In this document: positions 17,127 through 33,333 of the stretch, in pieces | How the letters are laid out: every line of letters begins with the position of its first letter | Position numbering within the stretch: the first letter of the stretch is position 1 | Assembly: GCA_023485645.1 (NCBI GenBank) | Contig: JAMCZM010000016.1 | Location: 3,210-39,794 of the forward strand | Direction of reading: 5' to 3' | Length of the DNA: 36,585 nt | Origin: Candidatus Marsarchaeota archaeon | Lineage (GTDB): Archaea > Micrarchaeota > Micrarchaeia > Micrarchaeales > Micrarchaeaceae | Program-made: the position numbers and the translations under genes | Notes under the pieces: model-generated | Database searches by the model: none | What the model was told of the DNA's origin: nothing | Seen by the model: only the letters and a program-made list of their open reading frames with translations

Positions 17127-17134
17127 TTTTTATA
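17127..17134 (+). promoter_or_regulatory. TATA-box candidate for the cluster's first gene
   Basis: TTTTTATA lies 41 nt upstream of the ATG at 17175. GGTG (17165-17168) is a possible SD 7 nt before the ATG. Confidence 0.35.
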
Positions 17135-17174
17135 TTATGTATATTCATAGTATTATGTTAAAACGGTGTTAAAA

Positions 17175-17621
17175 ATGAACTCCAAGAAAAGTTTAACTGC
17201 AAAATTTGCAGTTATTAGTTCGAAATATGGCAAGATTCTAATATCAATGATGATCCTTTTTGGATACATCTCTGGTATTGGTATGTCACAGATAATAATA
17301 GGCGGAACTGGAACACAATCTGGTGTTGGTGGCGCGTTAAATGCAATATGTACAGTATATTCAGATGTTGAAACTGTAATATTCATATTGGGATTAACTC
17401 TGATGATACTGGGTGCGGCGCTATACGCTGGTTCTCATGTGATGCCTAGCCAATCAAAGGGTTCCCTACAAGGTTATGGAATGGGTATGATATTAGGAGG
17501 CGTAGTGGGTGTTATAATAGCTCTCTTAGCTCCATACATACTACAGTTGATAACAGGGCAGACTGCAGCGCAGATAACAGCACAATGCGGTAATATCGGA
17601 GGATTGCTGAGTGGATTTTAG
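17175..17621 (+). CDS. Small secreted two-helix hydrophobic protein, VirB2/TrbC/CedA1/TedC-like pilin candidate
   Basis: A basic N-terminus plus hydrophobic leader (KILISMMILFGYISGIGMS) is followed by a Gly-rich segment. Two long hydrophobic helices (VIFILGLTLMILGAALYAG and GMGMILGGVVGVIIALLAPYILQLI) are joined by a short polar loop (SHVMPSQSKGSLQGY). It is the first gene of the VirB4-containing cluster. The ATG at 17175 is preferred to the GTG at 17166. Confidence 0.5.
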   Translation: MNSKKSLTAKFAVISSKYGKILISMMILFGYISGIGMSQIIIGGTGTQSGVGGALNAICTVYSDVETVIFILGLTLMILGAALYAGSHVMPSQSKGSLQGYGMGMILGGVVGVIIALLAPYILQLITGQTAAQITAQCGNIGGLLSGF

Positions 17622-17644
17622 TCCATTCGGCATCTGATAAACTC

Positions 17645-17659
17645 TTTTTCATTTTTTTT
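17645..17659 (+). terminator. Oligo-T tracts (T5 and T8) downstream of the pilin-candidate gene
   Basis: ctTTTTTcaTTTTTTTTa lies 24-38 nt after the stop at 17621. Archaeal termination typically uses oligo-T runs. Confidence 0.4.
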
Positions 17660-17672
17660 ATTATTAATATTC

Positions 17673-17721: not shown

Positions 17722-18453
17722 GTGGTAAATGTAATAAAACACTCGATAGATTTCTATATAAAGAATTTAGAGCTTATATTTCTGTTTTCAGTGGCATTTA
17801 TAATCGCATTTTTAATACCTGTATTCGCATCGCTTCCAACATTTAATGATGCAGGGGCGATATTTATAAGAACATCAAGCATATTTACAAATCTTAATAT
17901 AGTCAGCACGTCGGTTATAATTGCCGCGCTATTCTTTTCATTGTTATTTCTCAGCTTTGCAATAGTTGCAATAAACATACTTGTAAGGCATACAAGAACG
18001 CATACAAAGATAAAAGAGGAGGTAATTAAGGGAATAGAGCATTATACTAGTAGGGTATTCATTGTTCTGCTACTATATTCTGCTATAATAATATTGGTTA
18101 ACATAGCAACATATGGGTATGGCATATCAGGTGTTGCAACAGCAATAGTTGGCATATTATTACTGCCAATATTTTTCTATGCTCCAAGCGCAATTGTTAT
18201 AGACGAGCATAGGGTGCTTCCTGCTATAAGGTCTGGTGTAAATTTCTTCTTTAAACGATTTGATTATGTGTTTGTATGGCTTGTAATAGCAATACTTGCA
18301 TTAACAATATTTGATTTTATTTTCATAGTATTGACCGGAACTACAATATCAAGATATGCGATGCTCATATTTAATGCATTTGTAATATTGCCATTTCTTG
18401 TTGTGCTTCAGAGCCAGATGTATATGAAAAGATTTGCGATAATGCGGCACTGA
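17722..18453 (+). CDS. Polytopic membrane protein (about 6 TM), unknown function
   Basis: The start is GTG; there is no in-frame ATG near the 5' end. The protein consists of repeated long hydrophobic helices. Confidence 0.7.
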   Translation: MVNVIKHSIDFYIKNLELIFLFSVAFIIAFLIPVFASLPTFNDAGAIFIRTSSIFTNLNIVSTSVIIAALFFSLLFLSFAIVAINILVRHTRTHTKIKEEVIKGIEHYTSRVFIVLLLYSAIIILVNIATYGYGISGVATAIVGILLLPIFFYAPSAIVIDEHRVLPAIRSGVNFFFKRFDYVFVWLVIAILALTIFDFIFIVLTGTTISRYAMLIFNAFVILPFLVVLQSQMYMKRFAIMRH

Positions 18454-18511: not shown

Positions 18512-19816
18512 ATGCGGCTTCATTTTTATGTTATTTTTCTCTTTCTTTTTGGTATACTCCTATTTATACCATTTATAACATCAGCCGCAAAGGTAAATAC
18601 ACAGTATTTATTTACATCAACGCTTTCTGGTACTCAGTATATAGCAACAACATTAACCGAGGCAATAGCAACAGGTGCATTTACCAGTGCAGTTGCGCTT
18701 TCATTACTTGGCATATTACTTTCATTTCTTCTTATTGCAGTATCTTACATACTAGATTCTATGTTTAATATACCATCTCTAAAAGGTTGGTATAAAGGGG
18801 AGATACGCGAAACGATAAAATCAATAATAATTGTCGTGGTCGTATTTTCTGTGATCATAATAATGGGCAATATAGCCATAAGCGATTTTTCCGTAGGAAA
18901 TCTTGCTCCATTAAATGGCATAAATCAAATTACAACCACTACAGAAGCTATGTATAACGCAGTGGAGGTGCAGTATCTGGGCGCCGAATTAAATGATGTA
19001 AATGCTTCGTTGATAGGATTATTCGGACTATATGACGGTCTTGGCGTTCTAAAGACTACAACAGTATCATTATATGTGCCTATTCCGGTACTGCCACTGC
19101 CAGAATTTTATATAGGTTCAATAGACTTTGGGGTAAAAGAGAATCTTTATACGAGCAGTGTTCTTGGCTCTACTAATATCCCAGATGCAGGGCTTACAAC
19201 AGATATAGGAAAGGTTGTAGTTTTACCTATGTTAATTCTATTTCAGGTTGAGGTTGATGTATTTCCATATGTGGTAATTGCAGGGCTTACAGTATTGCTT
19301 CCTGCAGGAATAATACTTAGATCTATACCGCTTCTAAGATCGATAGGCGGTACACTAATAGCGTTGGGCATTGGTACTGCAATTGTATATCCGGCGCTAT
19401 TGTTGTTAATGAATTTACCGCTTACAAATTTTATAGCTCCGCCAGTTCAGACAGGAACAACCCCGCCATTTAATTGTGCTACAATAACAAATGGGGTAGC
19501 ATCAGCAAGCCTAACCTGTGGGTTCTTAAATAGCGCTGTTAGTACAACGCAGTCATATCTATCAAGCATGCCAAATAGTCAGCCATTGACGAATAATCTT
19601 CAATATGCTCTTAGTGGGTTTGTCGCAGGAATATCAAGCCTAACTAGTGTATACCCTGCGCTTAATTTCATAACCTCTCAGATGTATATAAATTTAATAT
19701 ACCAATTTATACTTAGCATACTCGATATTATAATAGGATTTACCATAACACAGAACATAGCAAAGATGTTAGGTGGTAGCATAAAGCTCGGAATCGGCAG
19801 ATTGAAACTGGCATGA
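18512..19816 (+). CDS. Polytopic membrane protein, paralog family member P1 (with signal peptide)
   Basis: The family motif RSIPLLRSIGGTLIALGIGTAIVYP lies at 19319-19393. An N-proximal motif K..EIRETIKS precedes a TM helix. The C-terminal tail reads KMLGGSIKLGIGRLKLA. Confidence 0.85.
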   Translation: MRLHFYVIFLFLFGILLFIPFITSAAKVNTQYLFTSTLSGTQYIATTLTEAIATGAFTSAVALSLLGILLSFLLIAVSYILDSMFNIPSLKGWYKGEIRETIKSIIIVVVVFSVIIIMGNIAISDFSVGNLAPLNGINQITTTTEAMYNAVEVQYLGAELNDVNASLIGLFGLYDGLGVLKTTTVSLYVPIPVLPLPEFYIGSIDFGVKENLYTSSVLGSTNIPDAGLTTDIGKVVVLPMLILFQVEVDVFPYVVIAGLTVLLPAGIILRSIPLLRSIGGTLIALGIGTAIVYPALLLLMNLPLTNFIAPPVQTGTTPPFNCATITNGVASASLTCGFLNSAVSTTQSYLSSMPNSQPLTNNLQYALSGFVAGISSLTSVYPALNFITSQMYINLIYQFILSILDIIIGFTITQNIAKMLGGSIKLGIGRLKLA

Positions 19817-19820
19817 TAAT

Positions 19821-20147
19821 ATGATAGATACGTGTGCACTGTATGGGGGATCAACATATGTAAGTAGTTGGTTAGAGCCATCATTATTAATAATATTGAC
19901 CGCATTTTTAATCGTTGCAATATTATATATATTATCAGGATTTTTCTCATCATCACTTCGATCTAAAATACGTGAAATGGTAAAATCTGAAATTGTACAG
20001 CTTGTTATAAGCGTCGTTATAATTGCAATACTATTAGGGTCTGCCGTAACAGCTTGCAATATTTCATCTTCAATTAGCCAGAGTCTTGTAAAGAGTTCAT
20101 TAAATCCAATACAGTATTCAGAATATTATATAGGTTCAAAAATCTGA
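19821..20147 (+). CDS. N-terminal fragment or subunit of paralog family member P2 (split gene)
   Basis: It carries only the N-proximal family elements (TM helix, then SKIREMVKSEIVQLVISVV). It ends at the TGA at 20145-20147, immediately after an A5 run (20138-20142). Confidence 0.6.
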   Translation: MIDTCALYGGSTYVSSWLEPSLLIILTAFLIVAILYILSGFFSSSLRSKIREMVKSEIVQLVISVVIIAILLGSAVTACNISSSISQSLVKSSLNPIQYSEYYIGSKI

Positions 20148-20149
20148 GC

Positions 20150-20950
20150 ATGAATACGGGGTTGAAGTTGCTATCTTATTTATATACAACATCAATTGTA
20201 TATGGTATAGATGCACGAATATTATATGTTATAGGCAATTCATTTGATTTTTTCCAGACGCGCGCTATCTTAGGCGCATCGATAAATTTTGGCATTAATC
20301 TGTCTGTTCCATATAATTTCTTAGCCACTTTGTATGTATCAGTGTTCTCTCCAATTCTTATAATAGTAATAGGCATGCTGCTTTTGCAATATATACTGCT
20401 TCCGCTGATACAGTATACCGCGTTTACTATAGTGCTACCAGTCGCACTTATTGTCAGATCTATTGCATATATAGGTACAAGTGGGGGCCTTAGGACTGCA
20501 GCTAATGCATTGATTGCAATAGCTATAGCCTTTTATTTGATATATCCGCTTACTATAGGGCTTGATAGCGTAATTGTTAATTGGTTATACTCACCTGCAA
20601 ACCCTACATATACATATTTGCAGCAGACCTTGCAATTCAATCAGATACCATCAACATTCTTATCCACTACAACAAGTACATTAACTGGTCCATCAGCATT
20701 TGGCTTATCTACACAATCTATAAGCTCATTATTAAATAGCGCGAGCACTTTGGGTATTGCGCACTTTTTAAATCCTATTAATATACCACAAGAGGCAAAT
20801 TTTATAATAACAACAATGGCACAATTTATATTTGTAGGAATATTCTTATTTGCGTTAAATATGGGTATAACGGTGGCATTTGCAATGAGTCTATCTAAAG
20901 CGCTTGATGCTGGAATAGATGGCGCCGGTTCATTCTGGAGAGGTTTATGA
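20150..20950 (+). CDS. C-terminal fragment or subunit of paralog family member P2
   Basis: It starts 2 nt after the upstream stop, in the -1 frame. It carries the family motif RSIAYIGTSGGLRTAANALIAIAIAFYLIYP at 20456-20548. Confidence 0.7.
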   Translation: MNTGLKLLSYLYTTSIVYGIDARILYVIGNSFDFFQTRAILGASINFGINLSVPYNFLATLYVSVFSPILIIVIGMLLLQYILLPLIQYTAFTIVLPVALIVRSIAYIGTSGGLRTAANALIAIAIAFYLIYPLTIGLDSVIVNWLYSPANPTYTYLQQTLQFNQIPSTFLSTTTSTLTGPSAFGLSTQSISSLLNSASTLGIAHFLNPINIPQEANFIITTMAQFIFVGIFLFALNMGITVAFAMSLSKALDAGIDGAGSFWRGL

Positions 20951-20951
20951 T

Positions 20952-22562
20952 ATGTTAGATATTTCAAGTATGTTATATGGAATAATATCACTTGGCAATT
21001 ATGTGATAACCTCATCTGATGTAAGTAGCGTAGGCAGTCAATTTATACCTATAATATTAATAGCGATCTTGGCTGACTCAATGATTATATCGTTATGGTA
21101 TATGATAAGCTCAATAATAAATAGTTCAGAATGGAAGGCTGGCGCTATAAGTGAATTTTATCAATTAGTTGGCACAGTAATAATAATGGTTATAATAGTG
21201 GGCGTGCTTGGTACATATGGAAGTGCGTTTGTATCATCATTAGGTAATAGCGGACTTTCTCCTACTAGTATGACATTAACATGCGCGAATTTAGAATTAA
21301 ATAGTAATCTGAACATACTTAAATTAAATCCTACTGGCCTTACAACGTACTCATTTCTATCGGGCATTAATGGATTATCATTTTCTGGATTATGTAGTTA
21401 TATATATGCCCAGGACATTGCGCCATCATTCTCATCTACGTTGAATTATCCACTTGCAGCAACTGGTATTATAACAGCAAATCTTACAAATCAGACTGCA
21501 ACAAATATAAATTCATATTTCGTACTGGACTCATATATTGGTTATTTAAAAGGTCTATCGCCAACGTATGAATTCTGTTTGCAAGGTGCTCCAGGTGAAG
21601 GACTATCCTGTTTGCTTCCGCCTCTCGCATTTGTAAATCCACCATTATTAACCGTGGTTGGTTCATACAAACCTTATGCTGGCTTTAGCATGCTTTATAA
21701 TATAATGAGGACGCTCGGTGTTCTTTTGACATCAGCATTAGAATCATTTATAGGTCAATTGCTTTTGATATCCACAATGTTAGAAATTTGGCCATATCTA
21801 CTATTTATCGGAATACTTGCAAGGGTATTCCCATATACTCGAAAAATTGGAGGGTTATTTATTGCAGTTGCTATTGGCGTATTATTCTTCTATCCCCTTA
21901 TATTCTCTATGGAGTATTTAACGATAGGACATGGATTAAATAGCCAAGTCAATCAGAATTCTCTTAATGTACAAAATGTAGCATCAGGGATTACAACGGC
22001 AACAGGACAGATCACAACAAATCCAATTACTGGTATTACAAATCTGATAAATAATAATCCGTTATCTGGACCTGGTCCTATAGGAAGTGCGTATGGTACA
22101 AATTATTCAACCACAAATACGCTTACAGAATTGCCGGCGGGGCTTGATGGTAGCATTCCATATAATCTTAATTTCTTTTCAGAGCCAAGTTTACAAGCGA
22201 TTGCAACAACAAATAATTGTTGGCCTGCAAATGGCGCAAAATATGGGTCTTTAAGCAGTGAGCTTTCTAATACTGCAACATTTCTAAATCCAATAACCTC
22301 ATCAATAAGTACGGTATTAATGTTTTTAAGAAGTACGAGTACGCTTCCATCAGGTGTTCCATCACTATATCTATCAAATGCTTGCAATGAACAGAGTTCA
22401 GAGAATATGTTATTTATGATAATGAACGCGTATGGTATAATAGGAATACCAGCATATTGGCTTCCTATAATGAATCTTGTAATAACGCTATCTGGCATTA
22501 TAGGTTTGTCTGGGTTGTTAGGCGGCGATACATTAATGGCCGGACTTGGTAATTTGGTATGA
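20952..22562 (+). CDS. Polytopic membrane protein, paralog family member P3 (no signal peptide)
   Basis: The ATG at 20952 lies 1 nt after the upstream stop; the tracker start at 20919 overlaps the previous gene. The family motif RVFPYTRKIGGLFIAVAIGVLFFYP lies at 21822-21896. Confidence 0.85.
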   Translation: MLDISSMLYGIISLGNYVITSSDVSSVGSQFIPIILIAILADSMIISLWYMISSIINSSEWKAGAISEFYQLVGTVIIMVIIVGVLGTYGSAFVSSLGNSGLSPTSMTLTCANLELNSNLNILKLNPTGLTTYSFLSGINGLSFSGLCSYIYAQDIAPSFSSTLNYPLAATGIITANLTNQTATNINSYFVLDSYIGYLKGLSPTYEFCLQGAPGEGLSCLLPPLAFVNPPLLTVVGSYKPYAGFSMLYNIMRTLGVLLTSALESFIGQLLLISTMLEIWPYLLFIGILARVFPYTRKIGGLFIAVAIGVLFFYPLIFSMEYLTIGHGLNSQVNQNSLNVQNVASGITTATGQITTNPITGITNLINNNPLSGPGPIGSAYGTNYSTTNTLTELPAGLDGSIPYNLNFFSEPSLQAIATTNNCWPANGAKYGSLSSELSNTATFLNPITSSISTVLMFLRSTSTLPSGVPSLYLSNACNEQSSENMLFMIMNAYGIIGIPAYWLPIMNLVITLSGIIGLSGLLGGDTLMAGLGNLV

Positions 22563-22566
22563 TCAT

Positions 22567-23730
22567 ATGAGCAAAAAAATAAATGCGGCAAATGCTACTA
22601 TTAAAAGAAAACGAATAGTTGCGACATTCTCTTTAGCAATGCTTCTTTTATTGGCATCGACATTTATCTATAATGTTGCAAGCGCTCAGATTACAACTTA
22701 TACAAATACTGCTACTACGCTACCAACGACTGCAACGCTCTGCAGTACAATAATACCTCAAAGTGAGCTGCTTACTATACCTACTGGCGTTCTCTCTACA
22801 ACATTGCTCATAATACTTACAATGGCTATCGTATCAGGTGTCATATATGCTGTTGGATACTCGTTAAAGATAAGCAAATTTATGAATTTTAGCAAGACTG
22901 AATTTGGAGAGATAGCAGTTACGATACTACTTGTCTTAATACTATTTGGATCATTTGCAGCATTAACCCCAAATGGGCTAGTAAATATAAACCCATTGAA
23001 TACGAGAACAACATTCATAAACGATTGCAATTTACTGGAGGGTTCATCATTTAATGTATATAATGATGTATTCACATACTTTTTGATACAGAATATAGAG
23101 CTGCAACTTGTAAGTAGCTTTAATGTGGAACTAGAGCCTGGGTTCTTCGGATTCAACTTTTCGCCATTTGTGGGCTATGGACTTGAGAGCAATCTATTAA
23201 ATACGATGCTTGAATTTGTGACCATGCTTGCAACATTGCTTATAGCACTGATAATAGTTTTGGGCGTTATATATGCAATATTTCCCGTATTTTTGTACCT
23301 TGGAATTATATTTAGAGCTGTTCCATGGACGCGTGTTGCTGGAGGCTCGTTAATTGCGTTATTTATAGGGTTTTATATGCTATTTCCTATACTTTTAGGT
23401 GCAATGATGGGTGCATATACACCAATAAGTCCATCAATGTCATATTTTGATAAGGTTGTTTCAAGTATGGACACGCTAGCATCCTCTGGAGTACTGCGCG
23501 GCGTTACAATACCTCTAGCTGTTGTAATAAATATATATAAGAATGTTGCAGGTGTTTTAGGATTTAATCTTATATACACAATAATACAGGGAACTGTAGA
23601 ACCTGTTATATATACAATATTCGCATTGGTATTATCACTTATAATCTCGCTTGATTTCACCGAATTGATGGGAGATTTCCTTGGCGCGCCAAGTCTGTCA
23701 TCAAAGAGTACGCTCTCAAAGGTGCTATGA
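22567..23730 (+). CDS. Polytopic membrane protein, paralog family member P4 (with signal peptide)
   Basis: The ATG at 22567 lies 4 nt after the upstream stop. The family motif RAVPWTRVAGGSLIALFIGFYMLFP lies at 23314-23388. Confidence 0.85.
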   Translation: MSKKINAANATIKRKRIVATFSLAMLLLLASTFIYNVASAQITTYTNTATTLPTTATLCSTIIPQSELLTIPTGVLSTTLLIILTMAIVSGVIYAVGYSLKISKFMNFSKTEFGEIAVTILLVLILFGSFAALTPNGLVNINPLNTRTTFINDCNLLEGSSFNVYNDVFTYFLIQNIELQLVSSFNVELEPGFFGFNFSPFVGYGLESNLLNTMLEFVTMLATLLIALIIVLGVIYAIFPVFLYLGIIFRAVPWTRVAGGSLIALFIGFYMLFPILLGAMMGAYTPISPSMSYFDKVVSSMDTLASSGVLRGVTIPLAVVINIYKNVAGVLGFNLIYTIIQGTVEPVIYTIFALVLSLIISLDFTELMGDFLGAPSLSSKSTLSKVL

Positions 23731-26039: not shown

Positions 26040-26101
26040 AATAAGCATTTGTGTGCCTGGATTTTATATCGGCAATCGCGCACGGCGTAGTTAAATACTC
26101 T

Positions 26102-26109: not shown

Positions 26110-26135
26110 TTTCTTCTGATATATAATGGACTTTG

Positions 26136-26972
26136 ATGGACCAGAAAATCTTCTTATTTGGTATTTTAATTATAGCGGCATTTGCGCTAATAATAGCTGG
26201 AGCATTAATACCCTCGCAGATACTGCCTTATCCTATAAAAATAATAATTTACATACTAGCGATATTTTTAGATGTTCTTGCATTTGCAACAAGATACTAT
26301 ACATATATAATGATGCCTCTTTTTAAGCAGCGCAAAAAAAATATCACCTTAGACGTGCAGGAACCATATTGGATTGCTGGTAGCAATGATGCAATAGTAA
26401 GAAAGATAGGTGAGGAATTCATTGCAACTACCTTCATATTAATTCCACTTTATCGATCTGCAACAGAAATGTCTGTTGATGAAAAATTAAGTTTTGGGGC
26501 GCAAATAGGGCGTTTAATAAGTATAAATACTGAGCCTGTGCGATATTCGACACAGCTACATGTAATGGACAAGGAGGCATACTTATCAAGCATACGAGAT
26601 AGCCTTAATATGTCGGAGAATGAGATAATAGAATTGACGCAAAAAAATGCATCACAGCATGAGCTTGATAATGCAAAGGGAAGGGTTACGATGTGGCGCA
26701 ATATGATGGAGAGAATGTCTATTGAGCAGTCGTTTGAGCTTATGCTATACGCATCGGTATCAGCCTCAGGAACAAAAGAGTATGAGGCGACAAGCATTGT
26801 GCAGCAGCGCGCAAGAGATCTAATGTCAGGAATAAGTAGCACGCTTGGAATAACAACCTCTATAATAACGGGCAATGAGATGTTAAAGGTAATAGAGCCA
26901 GATCATTTGATACCATATTCGAATGTAAGAAAGCAAATAAATGCAAATATTTCAGGTGAGCAGAATGGATGA
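26136..26972 (+). CDS. TM-hairpin protein with soluble domain, VirB3-like hairpin plus VirB4 N-terminal-domain-like (paralog 1)
   Basis: Two N-terminal TM helices are followed by EPYWIAGSNDAIVRKIGEEFIATTFILIPLY...VRYSTQLHVMD...FELMLYASVSASG...LGITTSIITGNEMLKV. The pattern is shared with the next ORF and lies directly upstream of the VirB4-type ATPase. Confidence 0.45.
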   Translation: MDQKIFLFGILIIAAFALIIAGALIPSQILPYPIKIIIYILAIFLDVLAFATRYYTYIMMPLFKQRKKNITLDVQEPYWIAGSNDAIVRKIGEEFIATTFILIPLYRSATEMSVDEKLSFGAQIGRLISINTEPVRYSTQLHVMDKEAYLSSIRDSLNMSENEIIELTQKNASQHELDNAKGRVTMWRNMMERMSIEQSFELMLYASVSASGTKEYEATSIVQQRARDLMSGISSTLGITTSIITGNEMLKVIEPDHLIPYSNVRKQINANISGEQNG

Positions 26973-27798
26973 GATGAGTATAATATATATGGCGGTAACA
27001 TCGGTAGTGCTTCTAATAGCTCTTGCAATGGCTCCGTATGCAGCTCCTGGTCTTCTTTTTTATATTATATTATTTTTTATAGTGATAGCACTTGCCATAA
27101 TAGCTATACTAAATTGGGCTGATTTTTTAATATTTCCATTGGTTATGGGCAGGCTTGGCATAATCTTCGAGCCGGTAAAAGGTTATACTATCTCAAAGAA
27201 TCAGGAGGCTGTAATTAAACATGTAGGTGAATTATATTATGCGACTGGGTATATAACCGCAAATCTATACCCATATGAGTTTAAGCAGGAATTTAGCGAT
27301 CAGGAAGTTCAGCAAAAAATAGTTAATGCTCCAGATGTTTGGGAGCGTGCAGTTTCGAGCATTGACTTTCCATTTAAATTTCATGTGCTCTCAACTGGGA
27401 GAGACGTGCAGAAGGCAAGGGATGAGCTTGAGGGAAAACGTTCCTATCAAGAATTTCAAATGTCAAGAATGATGCAGAATACAAAGGGAAATGAGATGGG
27501 AATTGTTGATGTACAGAGGAAAATAAATATACTCCAAGCAAAGATGGATCGGTTATCACATGGCGAGAAGCCTATATCCACAATTATGTATATAGAGACA
27601 GCATCAGTTGGAGTTACTGAGAAATCCGCTCTGGATAATTTATCTGCGCAAATAGAGCGTTTGCAGGTTGCAATGAGTTCTATGGATATACAACTAATAC
27701 GCGTTGTAGGTAGAGAATTATATACACTGTTTAATTTTACATTCTCGCTGCCGACAAATTATATACAGGCTGCTGGTTATTTTGATTTGCAGGGTTGA
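26965..27798 (+). CDS. TM-hairpin protein with soluble domain, VirB4 N-terminal-domain-like (paralog 2)
   Basis: An ATGGATGA overlap joins it to the upstream gene. It has two TM helices, then EPVKGYTISKNQEAVIKHVGELYYATGYITANLY...FKFHVLSTGRD...STIMYIETASVG...MDIQLIRVVGRELYTL, collinear with the upstream ORF. Confidence 0.45.
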   Translation: MDEMSIIYMAVTSVVLLIALAMAPYAAPGLLFYIILFFIVIALAIIAILNWADFLIFPLVMGRLGIIFEPVKGYTISKNQEAVIKHVGELYYATGYITANLYPYEFKQEFSDQEVQQKIVNAPDVWERAVSSIDFPFKFHVLSTGRDVQKARDELEGKRSYQEFQMSRMMQNTKGNEMGIVDVQRKINILQAKMDRLSHGEKPISTIMYIETASVGVTEKSALDNLSAQIERLQVAMSSMDIQLIRVVGRELYTLFNFTFSLPTNYIQAAGYFDLQG

Positions 27799-27802: not shown

Positions 27803-29317
27803 ATGACACTAATGAAATTTCAAAATATAATGAGCAATGAAATAGCAAAGAGAGTATTCGTTACGCGTCCGCCAGAACCTCCAGCAAATATACTAATTGG
27901 CGATCCTCTAAAATCTGTGTATATAGGAACTACAAAGATGTTTAAGGTTCCATTTACTTGGACATATGCCAATTTAACAAATCCCCATATAGCTATTGTC
28001 GGTATAACAGGATCAGGAAAGAGCTATTTTGTAAAGACATTTCTTGTTCGTGCAAATTATGTATGGGGTACAAGTGCGGTAATAGTTGATTGGGCAGGCG
28101 AGTATAAAGCATGGGTAAAGCAGAGTGGTGGCACTATTGTCTCTCTTGGAAAGGGCGCATACATAAATATAATGGATTTATCTGGAATGAAGCCGTTAGA
28201 TCGTGTTAAGCAGATAATGAACTCATTTGAGTTGTTGACTGATATATCAGACTTTCCTGAGCAGAAGAGGCTTACAGAGGAGGCGATAGAGCAGGCATAT
28301 ACCAATATGGGATTTAATGTATCCGAAAAGCCGCTCGCAGGAAAAGAGGCCCCAACGCTAAAGGATGTTATAACGCTGTTTCAGGAAAAATTGCAGGATG
28401 GCACGTATGAATATCCTGCAGAGCTTGAAAATGCTATATATAGGCTTAGGCAGTTCGCGCGTGAGGGTGAGGATTATTTTGCTAGGAAAAGCACTATAGA
28501 TCTAGGTCAGTTAGCATCTTCAGGTCTTGTAGATATAGATCTATCCGGTCTCCCAGACGAGCGTTTCAGGGCTCTAGCCGCTCTTTTCATATTACAAACA
28601 CTAAAAGAGAAAATGCGTTTTGAGGGATGGAGCGAATCCAAAGGGCTAAAGACTATCGTTGTGCTTGATGAGGCATGGAAGGTGGCTAGCGATAATAGAA
28701 GCGATGCAATAACAATAGTTAGGGAAGGAAGAAAATATCAGTTTGGATTAATTGTTGCGTCTCAAAATCCTACCGATATAAACGAGGCAATATTCTCAAA
28801 TGTAGGCACAACATTTATATTAAGAATAAAATTTGAGAAGTTCATAAATTATATACAGGGTTCATTAAATTTTTCAGATTTTATAAGATCCGAAATAACC
28901 AAATTTGGTGTAGGGCAGGCTGCTGTAGAGATGGCATTTCAGACTGCAATACGCTTTCCAGAGACATTTATATTGGAAAAAATCTATGGGGAGGAGCCAC
29001 TTTCCGTATACAATATTGATCTAAATGGTATATTAACGCAAGCCGAAATAGCGGCAAACATAATATCTCGGGAGTACCAATTCGAGACAAATGAATTTAA
29101 GAACATACTAATAGAGTACAAGTTCTCTGCGGAAGATATTAATGCAATAATCGGAGAGTTTGATCAAAAGAGCAGGAATGTGGGCATAATAGATCTTCTT
29201 GTTCTATTTAGGCAATTTGGTATGAATAGCAACGATATGGTGCGCTTTTTAAAAGGGCTTGGCATTGATGATTCATTAATATCTAGAATAATAACAAGGG
29301 TGGGTAAGAATGGATGA
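27803..29317 (+). CDS. VirB4/TrbE/TraC/CedB-class ATPase (FtsK-HerA superfamily), C-terminal motor domain only
   Basis: Walker A GITGSGKS lies at 28001-28024. Walker B IVVLDEAWK has DEAW at 28667-28678. The downstream segment VREGRKYQFGLIVASQNPTDI follows. The ATG at 27803 lies 4 nt after the upstream stop. It is the only P-loop protein in the cluster. Confidence 0.8.
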   Translation: MTLMKFQNIMSNEIAKRVFVTRPPEPPANILIGDPLKSVYIGTTKMFKVPFTWTYANLTNPHIAIVGITGSGKSYFVKTFLVRANYVWGTSAVIVDWAGEYKAWVKQSGGTIVSLGKGAYINIMDLSGMKPLDRVKQIMNSFELLTDISDFPEQKRLTEEAIEQAYTNMGFNVSEKPLAGKEAPTLKDVITLFQEKLQDGTYEYPAELENAIYRLRQFAREGEDYFARKSTIDLGQLASSGLVDIDLSGLPDERFRALAALFILQTLKEKMRFEGWSESKGLKTIVVLDEAWKVASDNRSDAITIVREGRKYQFGLIVASQNPTDINEAIFSNVGTTFILRIKFEKFINYIQGSLNFSDFIRSEITKFGVGQAAVEMAFQTAIRFPETFILEKIYGEEPLSVYNIDLNGILTQAEIAANIISREYQFETNEFKNILIEYKFSAEDINAIIGEFDQKSRNVGIIDLLVLFRQFGMNSNDMVRFLKGLGIDDSLISRIITRVGKNG

Positions 29318-29618
29318 TAGCAATACGTTTTCAATAAACAGGTTGGATCTAAGAAGAGTTTTGCTTAATCTGGGCCTATCTGAGAAGAATATTGCTAGTT
29401 TATTTTCAATGATGGAAAAAAGCCACAGACATATAAACGCGATAACGCTTGCGTCAACGCTTGAAAAGATGGGTATTAATCGTGATAGAATAAAAAATGT
29501 ATTCAGGCGCTTTGGCATGAGTGATATACGCATACATAGGATAATGAATCAAATAGACGAGCAGCGCATAATTAATGAGACTGGAAAATTGTACGAAGCA
29601 ACGCTGGACAATAGTTGA
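29310..29618 (+). CDS. Small soluble protein with three helix-turn-helix-like hGhxxxxhxxhh repeats
   Basis: An ATGGATGA overlap joins it to the ATPase gene. The repeats are LGLSEKNIASLF, MGINRDRIKNVF and FGMSDIRIHRIM. Two more copies of the same motif occur at the ATPase C-terminus. Confidence 0.6.
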   Translation: MDDSNTFSINRLDLRRVLLNLGLSEKNIASLFSMMEKSHRHINAITLASTLEKMGINRDRIKNVFRRFGMSDIRIHRIMNQIDEQRIINETGKLYEATLDNS

Positions 29619-30043: not shown

Positions 30044-30063
30044 TTTGTCTTAATGTTGATGCT

Positions 30064-30795
30064 ATGTCTGATCAAAATATTGGCGTTATAGAGCCAAATG
30101 TTGACATGTTTTCATTTAGTGGCACAATGAAAGGAAGTTTCGACGATCTCTCTAGGCGGTTATCTACGCTGCAAAATTTCTCATTAAAAAAGATCCCAAA
30201 TGGAATAATGCTATATTATGTGGAGAGTAGGGACATACAAAAGAAGCCATTTCTATTTCAAATAATAAAATTTAGCAATAGCAATGTTGAGGTTGATTAT
30301 TCAATATTAAAAGATTCCAGCGAGAAGCTAAGAAAGCTGCATGTTTTAAGGGGTTTTATAGGAATTATATCGCTGATAACAGATATATTCATAATAGATA
30401 CTGTAAGTTTGTTTCAGTATATAGATTCTGCAATAGACGATACCGTATCATCATTGTCCAAGAACTATAGCGTGCTTTTCAACAATTATGATTCATTGCT
30501 TGCAGAGTACAGAGAGATGCGTCGCTTAAATGTTGAACTGAGCAGCTCAAATAAAAATTTGACCGTAGAATCTGCGAGGTTAAATACGGAAAACGAGCAG
30601 CTAAAGGGCAGGTTAAAAGAACTTGAAAACTATTCGGATGAGTCTTTAATGGTTATAGTACAGGATTGGATAGAGTCCCATGATAACACTATAGACATAA
30701 ATGAATTTTCCAAAACTTATAAAGTTGTGCAACCGCGTGTAGAGCAGATATTAAATAAGATGGTAACATCTGGCTATATAGAGGCTAAGGGCTGA
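30064..30795 (+). CDS. Cytoplasmic coiled-coil protein with C-terminal winged-helix-like domain
   Basis: A heptad-like segment reads LLAEYREMRRLNVELSSSNKNLTVESARLNTENEQLKGRLKELENY. The C-terminus is INEFSKTYKVVQPRVEQILNKMVTSGYIEAKG. Confidence 0.6.
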   Translation: MSDQNIGVIEPNVDMFSFSGTMKGSFDDLSRRLSTLQNFSLKKIPNGIMLYYVESRDIQKKPFLFQIIKFSNSNVEVDYSILKDSSEKLRKLHVLRGFIGIISLITDIFIIDTVSLFQYIDSAIDDTVSSLSKNYSVLFNNYDSLLAEYREMRRLNVELSSSNKNLTVESARLNTENEQLKGRLKELENYSDESLMVIVQDWIESHDNTIDINEFSKTYKVVQPRVEQILNKMVTSGYIEAKG

Positions 30796-30948
30796 GCTGA
30801 TGATATATAACATAAAAATAAAAAAGCACGCGCGGAATGTAAAAATATATACGATAGTTAAAAAAATAAATACAAAGAAAAATAATTTCGTTACGGCTAT
30901 TTTCATGAAAGCATTTTCAGGTAAGAAAAAAGATGGTGAGTATTGAGC

Positions 30949-33333
30949 ATGGCTGGATTTGATATAAAAAAGCCAAAAAATATATTGATTATAGTCGCAG
31001 TGCTTGCAATAATAATAGTGTTTGCCTATCTGTCAATCTATATAAATAGCATTTTGAGTAGCATAACACATGGGGCTGCGCACTATACATACGGTCTTAA
31101 TGGCTATATCAACTATCATAATATACTTTTTTATAATCAGAGCAAATATCTTGTACCCTATTTTATTATCAATTATAATTATAAAAATGAATCTAACTTA
31201 TTTGTTAATGGATCAATATACTCCGAGCCAATACCCCGTAACATATATTTGTTAAATGCATCAAATGAATGTGTAAACTGTAATAATTTCAATACATTGC
31301 GAGCAGCACTTGCAAATGATCTTGTAAGTTATGGTGTGATAGGAAATGTGTCAAATCTTTTGCTTATAAGTCCAGACAATTTAACACAAATCCGCAATAA
31401 TTCAATATTAATTTCACCCACTGGATTTTTACCATCTCAATTATTTCAGAATGTTTCAGAAAATATGACCGTTTTCAAATTATTGATGGAGCGTGGTACT
31501 AGTTTAATTTATGTTGGCGGCGCGTTAAATTATATGGTACTACCTGGTAGCATACAGGTTATAAATAAGGAGCAGCCATACCAATTGGCTATGGGTGCAG
31601 AACCTTATAGAAATCAGAGCTTCTATAAGTCATTATTTAATAGCAGCATGGGGTATATGTTCTTTCAGAATGCCACATATGTATTAACAAGAGGAAATAA
31701 TTTCTGGCTTGCTGATTATATAAATATTTTAAATGGTTCATTTATAGCAATACCAAATTATCCAAATACGTGGAGCACAAATAATCTATCGCTTGCATTA
31801 TCAAAGGGAACATCAGAGCTCTTCTGGTTGCCAATATATAGCTCCGGACAATATCATATTTCAAACAAAAATGTCACCGGCGACGGAAAGCTTGGGCTGT
31901 TTTTAACTTCAACAAATTTGCGCTATAACGAGAGTCCAACTACGCTTCTAAATAATTCGTATGCGCGAATAGAACTATATACAGACAAAGCTTATTTGAT
32001 ACCTAATGGGAGCAAATACTATTACATTTATTATAATTCAAAATATATATTTAATGGGACAATATCTATGCCTGGATATGTCATACCTGAAAAGTTAAAT
32101 GGTATAAACATAACTATATTTACACACTCAAATATAACGCAGATTATACAGCCAAATATAAATATAAAAAATCAGAATGGTACAACGATATACTCCCATC
32201 CATTACCTTATATAAAATCCTCAGGCAATTTTTCATTCATACAAAATGAGATATTTAATTTATCTCCTGGCAACTATCAATTTTCAGTGGTAAGTTTTTC
32301 TGGATATAACTATGGTACTGCGCTGCTTTATGTGCCTCCAATTCAGATAACGCCGTTAAATATTAACTTTACAAATGGTACATTCTTATTATATCTAACA
32401 ATGAACCAGCAGCAATTGAATAATATAAATTATACAATAAATATGACTAATAATTACTCGCAATCTGGTAGAATAACCGATGGCCTCATATTCTATAAAC
32501 TGCCTCAGAATTACAAGGAGCCTTATGGGAATGTTTCATTTGATATAAATATGCTAGGCTCAAAGTTTCCGTTTAAAATCGACAATCCTGCAATAAACAT
32601 AAGTCTAACGTCCGGAGATCTTTATGTAATCATAGTAATAATTATTGTCATAATTTTGGTCGTATTCGTACGTGATCCAATACGTGATGACTTTTATGTT
32701 GACGTCCCATCAATACCAAAACAAAAGAGCATAAATGTTGTGATAAAAAGTAAGGATATAATAAATGCGTTCGATAGACTTAACGTATATTACCATTGGA
32801 AGTACATGCCTTTAAACATAGAGGAGATACGAACAGCAATAGCAAATAATATACGTGATAATAATGTGCCGCTATCGCTTACCTATCAGAATGTAGAACT
32901 TTTGGTGGAAGAATTAGAAAAATCTGGCAAGCTTATAGAATATGATAACCTATACGCTCCAATAGATTGGGTGCAGCGCTCTGGGCATGACATTGAATAT
33001 ATCGCCACGTTTAAAAAATTAAGATTATGGTTTGTTTCTCATGGTTATATAATAAATGAGATGGATACCAGCAGCGCAGCTGATATAATAGCGACCATAA
33101 AAGGAGAGAGAATATACGTTATTATTTATTCAAGCACAAGCAAATTCATAAATATGCCATTATACGAGAATGCGCAAACATATCTCGCATTTATAAATGG
33201 TGATAGGCTTAATGAATTCAACGAAAAAATATCTGGTATGGTGGACCTTAATATTCAGAGGCTGAAATTATATATAAGTTATGGAGAGATAAAGCTTATG
33301 GATGCAGATAAGCCTGAAAAGACCATAATCTAA
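30949..33333 (+). CDS. Large bitopic membrane glycoprotein: N-terminal anchor, ~530-aa sequon-rich ectodomain, second TM helix, ~220-aa cytoplasmic domain
   Basis: TM1 is ILIIVAVLAIIIVFAYLSIYI. The ectodomain carries many N-x-S/T sequons. TM2 is LYVIIVIIIVIILVVFV. The cytoplasmic tail has a wHTH-like segment (LTYQNVELLVEELEKSGKLIEYD) and a nuclease-fold-like segment (DIEYIATFKKLRLWFVSHGY...ADIIATIKGERIYVIIY). The ATG at 30949 is preferred to the TTG at 30943. Confidence 0.75.
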   Translation: MAGFDIKKPKNILIIVAVLAIIIVFAYLSIYINSILSSITHGAAHYTYGLNGYINYHNILFYNQSKYLVPYFIINYNYKNESNLFVNGSIYSEPIPRNIYLLNASNECVNCNNFNTLRAALANDLVSYGVIGNVSNLLLISPDNLTQIRNNSILISPTGFLPSQLFQNVSENMTVFKLLMERGTSLIYVGGALNYMVLPGSIQVINKEQPYQLAMGAEPYRNQSFYKSLFNSSMGYMFFQNATYVLTRGNNFWLADYINILNGSFIAIPNYPNTWSTNNLSLALSKGTSELFWLPIYSSGQYHISNKNVTGDGKLGLFLTSTNLRYNESPTTLLNNSYARIELYTDKAYLIPNGSKYYYIYYNSKYIFNGTISMPGYVIPEKLNGINITIFTHSNITQIIQPNINIKNQNGTTIYSHPLPYIKSSGNFSFIQNEIFNLSPGNYQFSVVSFSGYNYGTALLYVPPIQITPLNINFTNGTFLLYLTMNQQQLNNINYTINMTNNYSQSGRITDGLIFYKLPQNYKEPYGNVSFDINMLGSKFPFKIDNPAINISLTSGDLYVIIVIIIVIILVVFVRDPIRDDFYVDVPSIPKQKSINVVIKSKDIINAFDRLNVYYHWKYMPLNIEEIRTAIANNIRDNNVPLSLTYQNVELLVEELEKSGKLIEYDNLYAPIDWVQRSGHDIEYIATFKKLRLWFVSHGYIINEMDTSSAADIIATIKGERIYVIIYSSTSKFINMPLYENAQTYLAFINGDRLNEFNEKISGMVDLNIQRLKLYISYGEIKLMDADKPEKTII

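Follow-up and report, generated by a model that had tools for sequence, protein, structure and literature searches.

The DNA analyzed here (the window, 36,585 nucleotides) comes from a member of the Micrarchaeota (class Micrarchaeia, DPANN), a tiny symbiotic archaeon. On its + strand, it carries a gene block of ~16 kb (17166-33333) that encodes one ATPase and 13 membrane proteins (Table 1), and for which we found no published description in the literature. All sixteen + strand ORFs of an earlier note on this sequence were found in place, and each gene junction listed there is correct when the internal ATG starts at 20952, 22567, 26965, and 27803 are used; in several genes, the start of the longest ORF is a GTG or TTG upstream of the ATG chosen earlier. 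The ORFs 19821-20147 and 20150-20950, however, are one frameshifted gene, so that the block holds 15 genes rather than 16. The frameshift near 20129-20145 divides a product of ~390 aa in full (median length of orthologues, 400 aa), and in tblastn searches, three orthologues switch frame between their match to 19821-20138 and that to 20129-20947. A hydropathy scan gave transmembrane (TM) segments in 13 products, in line with the at least 13 expected; none were seen in the ATPase and o13, and a single weak one in o15.

Table 1. Features of the gene block and their coordinates in the window
Feature	Position	Strand	Basis
AT-rich divergent intergenic region, carbamoyltransferase gene (-)/pilin gene	17033..17165	.	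sequence reading
o01, candidate TrbC/VirB2-family pilin	17166..17621	+	Pfam matches among orthologues
o02, conserved protein, ~7 TM segments	17722..18453	+	TM scan
o03, polytopic paralogue 1 of 6, VirB6-like candidate	18512..19816	+	hhalign
o04+o05, polytopic paralogue 2 of 6, frameshift-split in window	19821..20950	+	tblastn, hhalign
o06, polytopic paralogue 3 of 6, largest extracellular insert	20919..22562	+	hhalign, TM scan
o07, polytopic paralogue 4 of 6	22546..23730	+	hhalign, TM scan
o08, polytopic paralogue 5 of 6	23727..24917	+	hhalign, TM scan
o09, polytopic paralogue 6 of 6, AF2-modelled	24921..26039	+	hhalign, AF2, Foldseek
93-nt gap separating module A (o01-o09) from module B (o10-o16)	26040..26132	.	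sequence
o10, 2-TM protein with domain homologous to CedB/VirB4-like ATPase N-terminal domain	26133..26972	+	hhalign
o11, paralogue of o10, 2-3 TM segments and the same N-terminal-domain homologue	26941..27798	+	hhalign
o12, soluble FtsK-HerA-superfamily ATPase	27803..29317	+	Pfam, hhalign
o13, free-standing paralogue of o12 C-terminal helical domain	29310..29618	+	hhalign
o14, CxxC...CxxC zinc-ribbon, then two TM helices	29624..30043	+	sequence, TM scan
o15, N-terminal domain, coiled coil, C-terminal winged-helix domain	30064..30795	+	family scan
o16, 796-aa bitopic protein	30943..33333	+	sequence, TM scan

The divergent intergenic region ahead of o01 is likely the promoter region of module A, and the same divergent carbamoyltransferase/pilin arrangement occurs in Micrarchaeum sp. 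AZ1 (locus L081). The two modules are unlinked exactly at the o09/o10 gap in some lineages (L030, L034-L037), which is consistent with two transcription units. The earlier note had seen gaps with TATA-like boxes only at 17622-17721 and 26040-26135; this was too narrow, as two further AT-rich gaps, of 58 nt (18454-18511) and 147 nt (30796-30942), also contain TATA-like strings.

The first gene, o01, is a candidate member of the TrbC/VirB2 pilin family. Its product has a signal peptide and two hydrophobic helices with a short basic loop between them, and a conserved Cys pair flanks this hairpin. Pfam PF04956 (TrbC/VirB2) was matched by 23/56 orthologues at E ≤0.01, and one orthologue of the 56 (P0404) exceeds the gathering threshold of the family (29.8 bits, where 27.9 are required; positions 7-96 of the 98 in the model aligned), in agreement with the VirB2-like pilin candidate proposed earlier. 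The window's own copy has no Pfam match, and a profile search with o01 recovered no solved conjugative pilin, CedA1 and TedC included. For o01, AF2 predicts a helical hairpin with low confidence (pLDDT 66), for which Foldseek gave no informative match. All source-named o01 homologues (n=72 in total) come from metagenome-assembled genomes, mostly labelled Micrarchaeota. The second gene product, o02, is present in 37 loci at 33-71% identity and has no Pfam, NCBIfam, or PHROG match.

By profile comparison, the six tandem polytopic proteins that follow are true paralogues, as had been supposed from the sequence: pairwise hhalign probabilities among the six families are 95-99.6% (98.5-99.6% for o03 against the other five), and the superfamily motif FL..G...R....TR..GG..IA..IG....P is also found in o03. 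A relationship of these paralogues to VirB6 is only suggestive and comes from structural modelling. The AF2 model of o09 (pLDDT 81, pTM 0.72) is all-helical, with helices of 42-58 residues, and its top natural PDB matches in Foldseek are TrwI/VirB6 of R388 (8rtd_L, 7o3v_F/G, 8rt9_F), at values below usual significance (E 0.02-0.04, prob 0.77-0.98, TM 0.22-0.41). At the sequence level, o09 has no Pfam or PDB match, 0/113 members of the six families match TrbL/VirB6 Pfam models, and hhalign to A. tumefaciens VirB6 gave a probability of <1%.

Module B appears to encode a motor in separate pieces. Residues 83-260 of o10 align to residues 81-255 of CedB-like ATPases of ~690-910 aa (hhalign 95.2%, E 2.6e-8); the alignment of o11 to the same N-terminal-domain region is weak (39.9%, E 3e-4), and o10 and o11 align to one another (97.6%, E 3.8e-12). 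The idea of a detached pair resembling the VirB4 N-terminal domain therefore held for paralogy and, through o10, for homology. CedB is the NCBIfam family most often matched by o10/o11 members (5/55, best E 0.002), and hhalign of either against A. tumefaciens VirB4 itself was negative. The ATPase o12 comprises a catalytic module from the CedB/VirB4/HerA group and an ~85-aa helical C-terminal domain, and lacks an N-terminal domain of its own. Its product contains the motifs GITGSGKS, VVLDEAW, and RKYQFGLIVASQNPTD, and it is the sole NTPase of the block, as expected, NTPase domains being absent from all other ORFs. It matches the Pfam families DUF87 (3.8e-18), AAA_10 (3.3e-14), and P-loop_TraG (2.3e-11), scores far below the cut-offs of NCBIfam CedD, VirB4_plasma, CedB, and HerA, and aligns at 100% (hhalign) to residues 269-634 of CedB-like ATPases. 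In an exhaustive search, CedB-like proteins are prominent among its nearest relatives outside the o12 family, and these proteins at full length match the NCBIfam CedB model best and VirB4 second. When the o12 profile was searched against PDB sequences, HerA (8wiv, 1.8e-21; 4d2i, 3.2e-18) came slightly above VirB4 (4ag5, 8.8e-17), and R388 VirB4 was not reached. The catalytic domain by itself thus does not resolve VirB4 from HerA, nor is the combination of DEAW and GxxGSGKS diagnostic of VirB4, as had been claimed, since close relatives have DEAH or EEAH and HerA scores equal or better. We assign o12 to the VirB4/CedB side because of the N-terminal-domain homology of o10/o11 and the gene neighbourhood. 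Directly downstream, the 102-aa o13 duplicates the C-terminal helical domain of the ATPase (hhalign 98.2%, E 3.2e-14, 101 columns, ATPase residues ~424-504) and has no significant PDB or Pfam match; its earlier description as an HTH-repeat protein was not upheld, with no HTH match found.

Among the remaining products, o14 gives weak zinc-ribbon matches. Coiled-coil models (ZapB) matched 26 of 114 pooled members of the o02, o14, o15, and o16 families, and the winged-helix models PCI, EAP30/Vps36, and HTH_Cmi2_C matched 12 each; we assign these matches to o15 because the window copy of o15 matches the same families. The large bitopic glycoprotein anticipated earlier fits o16, the last ORF. Its N-terminal anchor or signal is followed by ~520 extracellular aa carrying 31 N-glycosylation sequons, then by a second TM segment (about residue 549) and ~220 aa of cytoplasmic domain. 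It is present in 70 loci at 26-42% identity and has no match in Pfam, NCBIfam, and other family scans.

The cluster is specific to the Micrarchaeota (class Micrarchaeia). There are >1000 homologues of o12, and the best 120 are 69-100% identical, the named ones nearly all labelled Micrarchaeota. Scanning one genome per species, we retained 80 loci from 118 confirmed matches (labelled Micrarchaeota in almost every case, two complete chromosomes among them), across which o12 identity is 63-100%. More distant members (36-55% identity) occur in a Micrarchaeota MAG (54-55%, the cluster of P0121) and an Anstonellales MAG (38%, P0140); Anstonellales belong to the same class. Gene order and strand are colinear in 57/57 informative Micrarchaeota loci, i.e., those with at least 8 detectable cluster members, which goes beyond chance; the block is chromosomal in these genomes. 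Where at least 9 kb of upstream sequence is available, o10 and o11 are present in 54/56 loci and all six polytopic paralogues in 47/56; where downstream sequence is sufficient, o13-o16 are present in 56/59 loci and the gene for topoisomerase VI B (topo VI B) is adjacent in 54/59. Housekeeping genes flank the cluster, and the upstream flank of PMT_2 glycosyltransferase and carbamoyltransferase is common to Micrarchaeum sp. AZ1. In ARM-1 and the OY969902 chromosome, only o12-o16 adjoin topo VI B at this locus. Pairwise distances track topo VI B distances for the ATPase (r=0.88; Mantel p=0.001, ATPase only), o11 (0.87), o16 (0.89), and o09 (0.74), and divergence is slower for o12 than for topo VI B (mean distance 0.30 vs 0.39). 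Across the class, inheritance of this chromosomal cluster is vertical.

Its vertical inheritance and its conservation above that of topo VI B make the cluster a strong candidate for the means by which Micrarchaeota exchange material with other cells. Probably, it is a chromosomally fixed derivative of a type IV secretion system (T4SS)/mating-pair-formation apparatus with its own architecture, which by analogy to Ced and Ted would import nucleic acid; the main inferences of the earlier note on a VirB4-like envelope machine survived testing in this form, as a T4SS-derived membrane machine. To our knowledge, Ced and Ted are the only characterized chromosomal archaeal relatives, with Ced hosts in the Sulfolobales and Ted hosts in the Thermoproteales. 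Both are domesticated T4SS derivatives that import DNA (PMC9905601), and on our reading, the Micrarchaeota cluster adds a third lineage of this kind in archaea. In sequence membership tests, it falls outside Ced, Ted, and HerA alike, and family-model and pilin-profile searches bear out the mismatch to the Ced gene set noted before. Compared with a bacterial conjugation or type IV secretion machine, it looks like a stripped-down, much-duplicated relative. There are precedents: in a system passed on vertically, Rickettsia retains five VirB6 paralogues in tandem (PMC2653234); a portion of a VirB4-like N-terminal domain is present in CedB and another in CedD (PMC11868833); and Patescibacteria depend on type IV secretion genes for epibiotic growth (PMC12102498).

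We infer an assembly, a stoichiometry, a pilus, a substrate, and a direction of transport. Module A (17166-26039) would supply the signal-peptide-bearing TrbC/VirB2-type pilin, the 7-TM protein, and six ancient VirB6-like paralogues, which might form a heteromeric membrane platform or channel as the base for a pilus or tube of conjugative type. Module B (26133-33333) would deliver the motor in pieces, with o10 and o11, membrane-anchored, docking it on the platform via their CedB/VirB4-type N-terminal domain. The motor would be the soluble catalytic ATPase o12, hexameric by superfamily precedent, with o13 as a free copy of its C-terminal domain encoded directly 3' of it. The zinc-ribbon membrane protein o14 and the coiled-coil/winged-helix protein o15 would be further parts, and the large glycosylated o16 could span the cell surface layer. 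ATP hydrolysis would drive pilin extraction and polymerization, and then the movement of a polymer through the channel, and nucleic acid would be imported from a contacted cell, whether host or conspecific.

One might instead see in the cluster a mobile element, such as a conjugative plasmid, that integrated and became trapped in the chromosome, as a pilin, polytopic proteins, and a VirB4-like ATPase do recall the mating-pair-formation module found in conjugative elements of archaea and monoderms (PMC9905601). This reading is effectively refuted: the cluster sits at one position with the same housekeeping neighbours in dozens of species, co-diverges with topo VI B, and has a GC content (0.32-0.40) similar to that of its flanks. 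Domain searches anywhere in the window agree with the earlier note in finding no integrase, relaxase, or VirD4/TraG coupling ATPase, and the window has no tRNA and no flanking direct or att repeats; the cluster is therefore not a mobile element, and its supposed chromosomal, non-conjugative nature stands. Relatives among 72,556 plasmids do not exceed 27% identity, and those on IMG/VR viral contigs do not exceed 26%. It is also very improbable that the likeness to conjugation is superficial and that the genes form an ATPase system of HerA type, acting in DNA repair or antiphage defence, or some other non-secretion membrane machine. HerA proteins (via DUF87 and PDB 8wiv, 8xau, and 4d2i) are the best matches of the catalytic domain, PADLOC models for HerA and DndH match the ATPase, and the VirB6 link of the polytopic paralogues is weak. 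However, the HerA equivalog models reach 57 bits (cut-off 800) and 50 bits (cut-off 970), only ~60 residues precede Walker A of o12, which therefore has no HAS-barrel domain, and neither HAS-barrel nor NurA families nor a nuclease, SIR2, or other defence partner was matched. Moreover, the neighbours of the ATPase are a TrbC/VirB2 pilin together with 12 further membrane proteins, and o10 shares homology with the membrane-anchored N-terminal domain found in CedB-like ATPases.

A different use of the same T4SS-derived machine is possible, if rather doubtful: it may serve host interaction instead of DNA import, as a feeding or docking conduit for host lipids, nucleotides, or proteins or for effector injection. 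The cluster looks core rather than accessory, given its class-wide conservation and an ATPase constraint stronger than that of topo VI B, and it takes up 16 kb of a genome of about 0.8-1 Mb. Nanohaloarchaeal giant surface proteins with VirB4/TraG-like domains have been proposed as secretion channels (PMC10266531), and in Patescibacteria, type IV secretion genes, not competence genes, are essential for epibiotic growth (PMC12102498); were the host-interaction reading true, the cluster would be the archaeal counterpart of that system. Against it, effector-like or substrate-recognition genes were not identified in the cluster, and ARM-1 shows only the ATPase module at this locus. Fibres or nanotubes do join cultured Micrarchaeota to their hosts (PMC8784108, PMC11329633), but according to the ARM-1 study, the nanotubes are host-derived (PMC11329633). 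The ARM-1 tubes measure 6.7 nm across on the outside and terminate in a 21-nm barrel that lies in the envelope of ARM-1 (PMC8784108, PMC11329633).

The cluster fills 17166-33333 of the window, where sixteen ORFs (o01 to o16) follow one another, all on the + strand, with gaps of 100, 58, 4, 2, -32, -17, -4, 3, 93, -32, 4, -8, 5, 20, and 147 nt in order. All ten ORF junctions listed in the earlier note are correct, given internal ATG starts at 20952, 22567, 26965, and 27803, and a simple hydropathy scan gives clear TM segments in 13 products, matching the proposed minimum of 13 membrane proteins. The claim that TATA-like gaps occur at two places only does not hold: four gaps exceed 50 nt, and those of 58 nt (18454-18511) and 147 nt (30796-30942) equal the two originally named in AT-richness and TATA-likeness. 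Likewise, sixteen ORFs are indeed present, but two of them, o04 and o05 (19821-20147 and 20150-20950), make up a single gene, the second of six paralogues, with a median orthologue length of 400 aa. Three of these orthologues match 19821-20138 in one frame and 20129-20947 in another, with the frameshift at an A-run around 20129-20145; in other Micrarchaeota this is one gene of about 390-400 aa, and the frameshift may be either an assembly error or a real disruption. G+C content across the window is about 34%; tRNA genes are absent, and an Rfam search found nothing. A promoter and terminator scan showed no enrichment and is uninformative, since its models are bacterial-type and the organism is an archaeon. 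Single-sequence scans of all 16 ORFs against Pfam, NCBIfam, PHROG, and PADLOC returned meaningful matches for the ATPase alone.

Features of the cluster and their positions in the window
Feature	Position	Strand	Remarks
Pilin, o01	17166-17621	+	signal peptide, two hydrophobic helices, Cys pair
7-TM protein, o02	17722-18453	+	
Six polytopic paralogues, o03-o09	18512-26039	+	VirB6-like candidates
Motor genes, o10-o13	26133-29618	+	N-terminal-domain pair, ATPase, C-terminal-domain copy
Zinc ribbon and two TM helices, o14	29624-30043	+	
Coiled coil and C-terminal winged helix, o15	30064-30795	+	
Large glycosylated bitopic protein, o16	30943-33333	+	two TM segments, 31 N-glycosylation sequons

The three ATPase motifs lie in the 27803-29317 product (o12), and no other ORF has an NTPase domain, in agreement with the initial reading. 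The protein belongs to the FtsK-HerA superfamily, with matches to DUF87, AAA_10, and P-loop_TraG. Its motifs had been taken to place it in the VirB4 class, and GITGSGKS and VVLDEAW are indeed present; however, near relatives carry DEAH or EEAH where o12 has DEAW, and HerA proteins come out slightly ahead of VirB4 for the catalytic domain in PDB searches, so that the motif argument is not decisive. Against the NCBIfam models, o12 is roughly equidistant from CedD, VirB4, CedB, and HerA and falls far under each curated cut-off: 77.3 bits for CedD (NF053655; cut-off 600), 63.4 for CedB (NF041017; 700), 60 for a CD1110-type VirB4 model (325), 34 for VirB4_CagE (TIGR00929; 643), and 57 and 50 for the HerA models (800 and 970). 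An exhaustive search yielded, prominently among the next relatives of o12 beyond its own family (E 1e-49 to 1e-36), archaeal proteins of ~690-910 aa, here called CedB-like, at an identity of only about 29-35%. They combine two TM segments, an N-terminal domain, the ATPase, a winged helix, and a tail that by eye resembles a PD-(D/E)xK nuclease, and their best NCBIfam match is CedB, over the full length including the N-terminal domain, with VirB4 next. Members of the CedB-like family are P0157, P0160, P0169, P0170, P0180, and P0198, and one related shorter protein comes from a Thermoproteota MAG.

The two ORFs preceding the ATPase, o10 and o11, connect the cluster to these proteins. The o10 family aligns to CedB-like residues 81-255 (hhalign probability 95.2%, E 2.6e-8) and o12 to residues 269-634 (100%), and o10 and o12 together reproduce the N-terminal two-thirds colinearly, whereas the CedB-like proteins are single polypeptides with a DNA-binding or nuclease-like tail. 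The o11 family matches its paralogue o10 at 97.6% and aligns weakly to the same N-terminal region, and CedB is the commonest NCBIfam match of individual o10 and o11 members (5 of 55). The suggestion of a duplicated, detached pair resembling the VirB4 N-terminal domain is thus borne out. When family profiles were compared by hhalign with the single VirB2, VirB3, VirB4, and VirB6 proteins of pTiC58, the results were negative, o10 and o11 against Agrobacterium tumefaciens VirB4 included, apart from a weak match of o12 to the VirB4 C-terminal domain (46%, E 2e-4). Given the CedB-like relatives and the homology of o10 to their N-terminal domain, we predict that the motor is an ATPase of the CedB/VirB4 type, with its membrane-anchored N-terminal domain encoded apart from it, in two copies; this assignment is supported through an intermediate family. 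The HerA scores raised the alternative of a HerA-NurA pair or a defence HerA. Only ~60 residues precede the P-loop (Walker A) of o12, which leaves no HerA HAS-barrel; o12 also has no HAS-barrel family match, NurA, SIR2, or another defence partner was not found, and with HerA scores far under their cut-offs this alternative was rejected. The 102-aa product of o13 (29310-29618) is a free copy of the ~85-residue C-terminal domain of the ATPase (29072-29314; hhalign 98.2%, E 3e-14). Its family profile gave nothing significant against PDB sequences and no HTH or known family, and the HTH-repeat proteins announced in the earlier note come down to a short repeated helical motif with no demonstrable HTH.

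The proposal of a VirB2-like pilin candidate fared well at the level of the family. There are 72 homologues of o01, and those with a named source all come from MAGs, mostly labelled Micrarchaeota; in their alignment the signal peptide and a conserved Cys come first, then a pair of hydrophobic helices, both strongly conserved, whose short connecting loop carries a conserved basic residue, and finally a second conserved Cys. Matches to Pfam TrbC/VirB2 (PF04956; E<=0.01) were obtained for 23 of 56 orthologues, the best at 7.1e-7, and one homologue (P0404) reaches 29.8 bits, with a gathering score of 27.9, over model positions 7-96 of 98. Members scanned singly showed no other recurrent family; the window copy by itself has no Pfam match, and the VirB2/TrbC feature is therefore one of the orthologous family. 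The family profile matched no solved pilin and no TedC among PDB sequences at E<=10, a set in which CedA1, whose pilus structure is published (PMC9905601), is expected. The pilin model has low confidence, and its Foldseek matches were all generic helical hairpins belonging to pore-forming toxins or designed proteins. We also compared the pilin by hhalign with the N-termini of the six paralogues, which probes the VirB2/VirB6 relationship reported for Ced; it matched paralogue 2 alone, and weakly (72%, 47 columns), and we do not rely on this result. A disulfide between the two conserved cysteines would tie the ends of the pilin together, recalling the head-to-tail cyclisation of TrbC/VirB2 pilins.

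That the six polytopic proteins are paralogous was confirmed by profile-profile comparison, in which every pair of families scored 95-99.6% probability. Their joint alignment brings out the motif FL..G...R....TR..GG..IA..IG....P, in which two arginines are nearly invariant and the proline is invariant. Each paralogue forms its own orthologous group with a conserved position across the sampled genomes, which indicates that the duplications are old. AlphaFold2 modeled the sixth paralogue (o09) as all-helical (pLDDT 81, pTM 0.72), with helices of 42-58 residues that, if the model is right, must reach past the membrane. Searching this model against 350,542 PDB chains with Foldseek gave no match at E 0.001; besides designed helical repeats, the top matches were four chains of R388 TrwI/VirB6 (E 0.02-0.04, probability 0.77-0.98, TM 0.22-0.41). 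Sequence comparisons did not add to this: among 113 members of the six families, a Pfam scan found neither TrbL nor any recurrent family, the o09 family profile had nothing significant among PDB sequences, hhalign against A. tumefaciens VirB6 stayed under 1%, and tblastn for VirB6 in the plasmid collection returned Rhizobiales-type homologues only. The modeled fold is thus suggestive of a relationship between the six paralogues and VirB6. The remaining genes, o02, o14, o15, and o16, are kept across the phylum and match no family. We asked of o16 whether its cytoplasmic domain corresponds to the nuclease-like tail of the CedB-like proteins, and at an hhalign probability of 0.2% this was not supported.

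Over 1000 homologues of the ATPase were recovered; the top 120, of ~500 aa, share 69-100% identity, and those with names are nearly all labelled Micrarchaeota. More remote members of the family (36-55% identity) include one Micrarchaeota MAG and one MAG of the Anstonellales, an order within the same class. When one genome per prokaryotic species was scanned, 118 matches were confirmed and 80 loci kept, nearly all from Micrarchaeota MAGs but including the complete chromosomes of the cultured ARM-1 and one other. The synteny survey proposed in the earlier note found colinearity without exception in the 57 loci where eight or more members were detectable. Among the 56 loci with sufficient upstream sequence, 54 have the gene pair directly upstream of the ATPase and 47 the complete set of six polytopic genes; downstream, the four genes after the ATPase are found in 56 of 59 loci, and in 54 of 59 topoisomerase VI subunit B comes next, oriented oppositely just as it is in the window. 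Micrarchaeum sp. AZ1 likewise has the pilin gene first in the same cluster, and, as in the window, a carbamoyltransferase gene and a PMT_2 glycosyltransferase gene lie divergently upstream of it. This pair, at 13586-17032 (- strand) in the window and 6677-9684 in the AZ1 locus (L081), may modify the surface proteins of the cluster. Pairwise distances of the cluster proteins follow those of topoisomerase VI subunit B, with r = 0.88 for the ATPase (Mantel p = 0.001), 0.87 for o11, 0.89 for o16, and 0.74 for o09, and the ATPase is the slower-evolving of the two (mean distance 0.30 vs 0.39). The cluster is a core gene set and is vertically inherited. The topoisomerase VI subunit B gene itself lies at 33330-34961 (- strand), without a neighbouring subunit A gene within the window; a KH-domain protein and a small conserved protein are encoded next.

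In some lineages, the block is divided. Five loci (L030 and L034-L037) have only o10 onward beside topoisomerase VI subunit B, and ARM-1 (L047, AP024486.1) and OY969902.1 (L065) have only o12 onward there; in all seven, the module of pilin and six paralogues is not adjacent at the topoisomerase VI subunit B locus. We therefore distinguish two modules, A (o01-o09) and B (o10-o16), meeting at the 93-nt gap at 26040-26132. A few records with clusters of the Micrarchaeota type are labelled Marsarchaeota, "Acidiferrales bacterium," or "Baltobacteraceae bacterium" (loci L022, L007, and L043; proteins P0052, P0069, and P0347), and these labels are probably mislabels or binning errors.

An assembly of pilin, channel candidates, and VirB4-like motor could also belong to an integrated conjugative plasmid or ICE. 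A whole-window domain search gave the same result as the first reading, with integrase, relaxase, and VirD4/TraG coupling ATPase domains absent from every ORF, and the cluster lacks flanking direct repeats. Elsewhere the window carries ordinary chromosomal genes (topoisomerase I, a tRNA methyltransferase, glycosyltransferases, a radical SAM enzyme, and a KH-domain protein), and the nearest relatives among 72,556 plasmids and IMG/VR have at most 27% identity. Because of the fixed synteny, the co-divergence with topoisomerase VI subunit B, the ordinary flanks, and the absence of mobility genes, tRNA genes, repeats, and close relatives on mobile elements, we rejected a conjugative element, a classical form of which the earlier note had considered the less likely reading.

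We then compared the cluster with known systems. The two characterised archaeal chromosomal relatives, Ced and Ted, share a minimal part set and import DNA (PMC9905601). Ted of Thermoproteales consists of the VirB6-like TedA, the VirB4-like TedB, and the VirB2-like pilin TedC (PMC9905601). Like Ted, the Micrarchaeota cluster is chromosomal and lacks a relaxase and a coupling protein, and it is probably a domesticated derivative of type IV secretion in an archaeon; both have a pilin with a cleavable N-terminal signal peptide, which in the cluster goes with polytopic VirB6-like candidates and a predicted VirB4-type ATPase. The cluster differs in having six paralogous VirB6-like candidates instead of one such protein, N-terminal-domain proteins separate from the catalytic protein where TedB is full-length, four further conserved genes (o13-o16), no HerA, ParA, or Rad50 neighbours, and conservation across a whole class of symbionts. 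In Ced of Sulfolobales (CedA, CedA1, CedA2, and CedB, plus CedD and CedE), the VirB4-like N-terminal domain is also spread over two proteins (CedB and CedD), and the channel proteins CedA and CedE are paralogous (PMC11868833); the CedD and CedB models are the best and third-best NCBIfam scores for o12. However, each Ced N-terminal piece is fused to its own ATPase domain, whereas here two such proteins serve a single ATPase; CedA1 lacks the signal peptide (PMC9905601) that o01 has; and the Ced genes are DNA-damage-induced and accessory (PMC11868833), while the Micrarchaeota cluster behaves as a core set. With CedB and CedD under their cut-offs and no CedA1 in the PDB pilin search, the earlier statement that the cluster does not match the Ced gene set is upheld, and sequence comparison with the ATPase models and solved pilins indicates that it is a member of neither Ced nor Ted.

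Two bacterial systems offer further parallels. The rvh system of Rickettsiales is vertically inherited and chromosomal in an obligately host-dependent, genome-reduced lineage, broken into islets in some genomes, with five tandem VirB6-like genes and duplicated VirB4, VirB8, and VirB9 (PMC2653234). Unlike the Micrarchaeota cluster, it is bacterial and diderm, has VirB7-11 and VirD4, and its VirB6 copies are recognisable by Pfam TrbL (PMC2653234), so the resemblance is an analogy of evolutionary pattern rather than close kinship. MPF-FATA is a minimal single-membrane system around VirB4, VirB6, VirB3, and a VirB2-like pilin, and its derivative in Patescibacteria, chromosomal and widely conserved, is essential for their epibiotic lifestyle (PMC12102498); by comparison, homologues of VirB3, VirB8, a VirB1/cell-wall hydrolase, and a coupling protein were not detected in the cluster. 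What sets the cluster apart is the six-fold paralogy of the candidate channel protein, the motor fully dismantled and duplicated, the four extra conserved genes, and the fact that an obligate symbiont whose genome measures ~1 Mb keeps it as a core set throughout the class.

Of the three signature parts of mating-pair formation, then, the pilin is well supported, the ATPase is supported via an intermediate family, and the channel is suggestive. Since the minimal part set of Ced and Ted has candidates for every part in the Micrarchaeota cluster, we read the latter as a putative third, independent archaeal domestication or retention of a type IV secretion machine. Following the example of Ced and Ted, we favor the import of nucleic acid, by means of a pilus, from a cell in contact as the single likeliest mechanism. 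The main rival, to which we give substantial weight, is that the same machine acts as a conduit for host interaction or feeding. The strength of conservation favors such a role, as do published images of Micrarchaeota joined to their hosts by filaments and nanotubes, which include an unassigned 21-nm barrel in the ARM-1 envelope (PMC8784108, PMC11329633); however, the imaging authors favored a host origin of the tubes, and ARM-1 shows module B alone at the topoisomerase VI subunit B locus, which makes a link between cluster and nanotubes speculative. In its most specific form, an essential host conduit derived from type IV secretion, with a VirB2-like tube and a six-paralogue base corresponding to the imaged filaments or nanotubes and the 21-nm barrel and drawing macromolecules from the host, we consider this account unlikely. 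If true, it would be an archaeal parallel to the essential Patescibacteria system, with conjugation machinery recruited independently for the lifestyle of ultrasmall symbionts in both domains.

How DPANN archaea attach to hosts and take up material is a major question. Their filaments, nanotubes, and docking structures have been imaged, and we know of no genes assigned to them. The cluster is a concrete candidate, class-wide and strongly constrained, that supplies a defined pilin, motor, and surface glycoprotein. If our reading as a type IV secretion derivative holds, domesticated archaeal conjugation machinery extends from hyperthermophilic Thermoproteota, with Ced and Ted, to DPANN. The architecture is itself unusual, with a predicted VirB4-type ATPase in separately encoded, duplicated domains next to a six-fold paralogous set of channel candidates, and it is tempting to speculate about a hetero-hexameric platform matching a hexameric motor. 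We found no description of the cluster in open-access papers and bioRxiv, including those on Ced and Ted, ARM-1, and DPANN cell biology. Existing annotations of the homologues read "hypothetical protein" or "ATP-binding protein," now and then "VirB4 component" or "HerA-like ATPase," and in one case "VirB2 component."

At the other end of the window lie two giant + strand ORFs, at 12-4517 (1501 aa) and 4548-7946 (1132 aa). The longer contains about six copies of a ~92-aa repeat with a PYTYQWY core and a Pfam SprB-repeat match. Towards their C-termini the two have a segment in common, beginning with a Gly-rich stretch and seen in the DNA as a 300-nt repeat (3408-3707 and 6900-7199, 76% identity); their products are probably surface proteins or adhesins.
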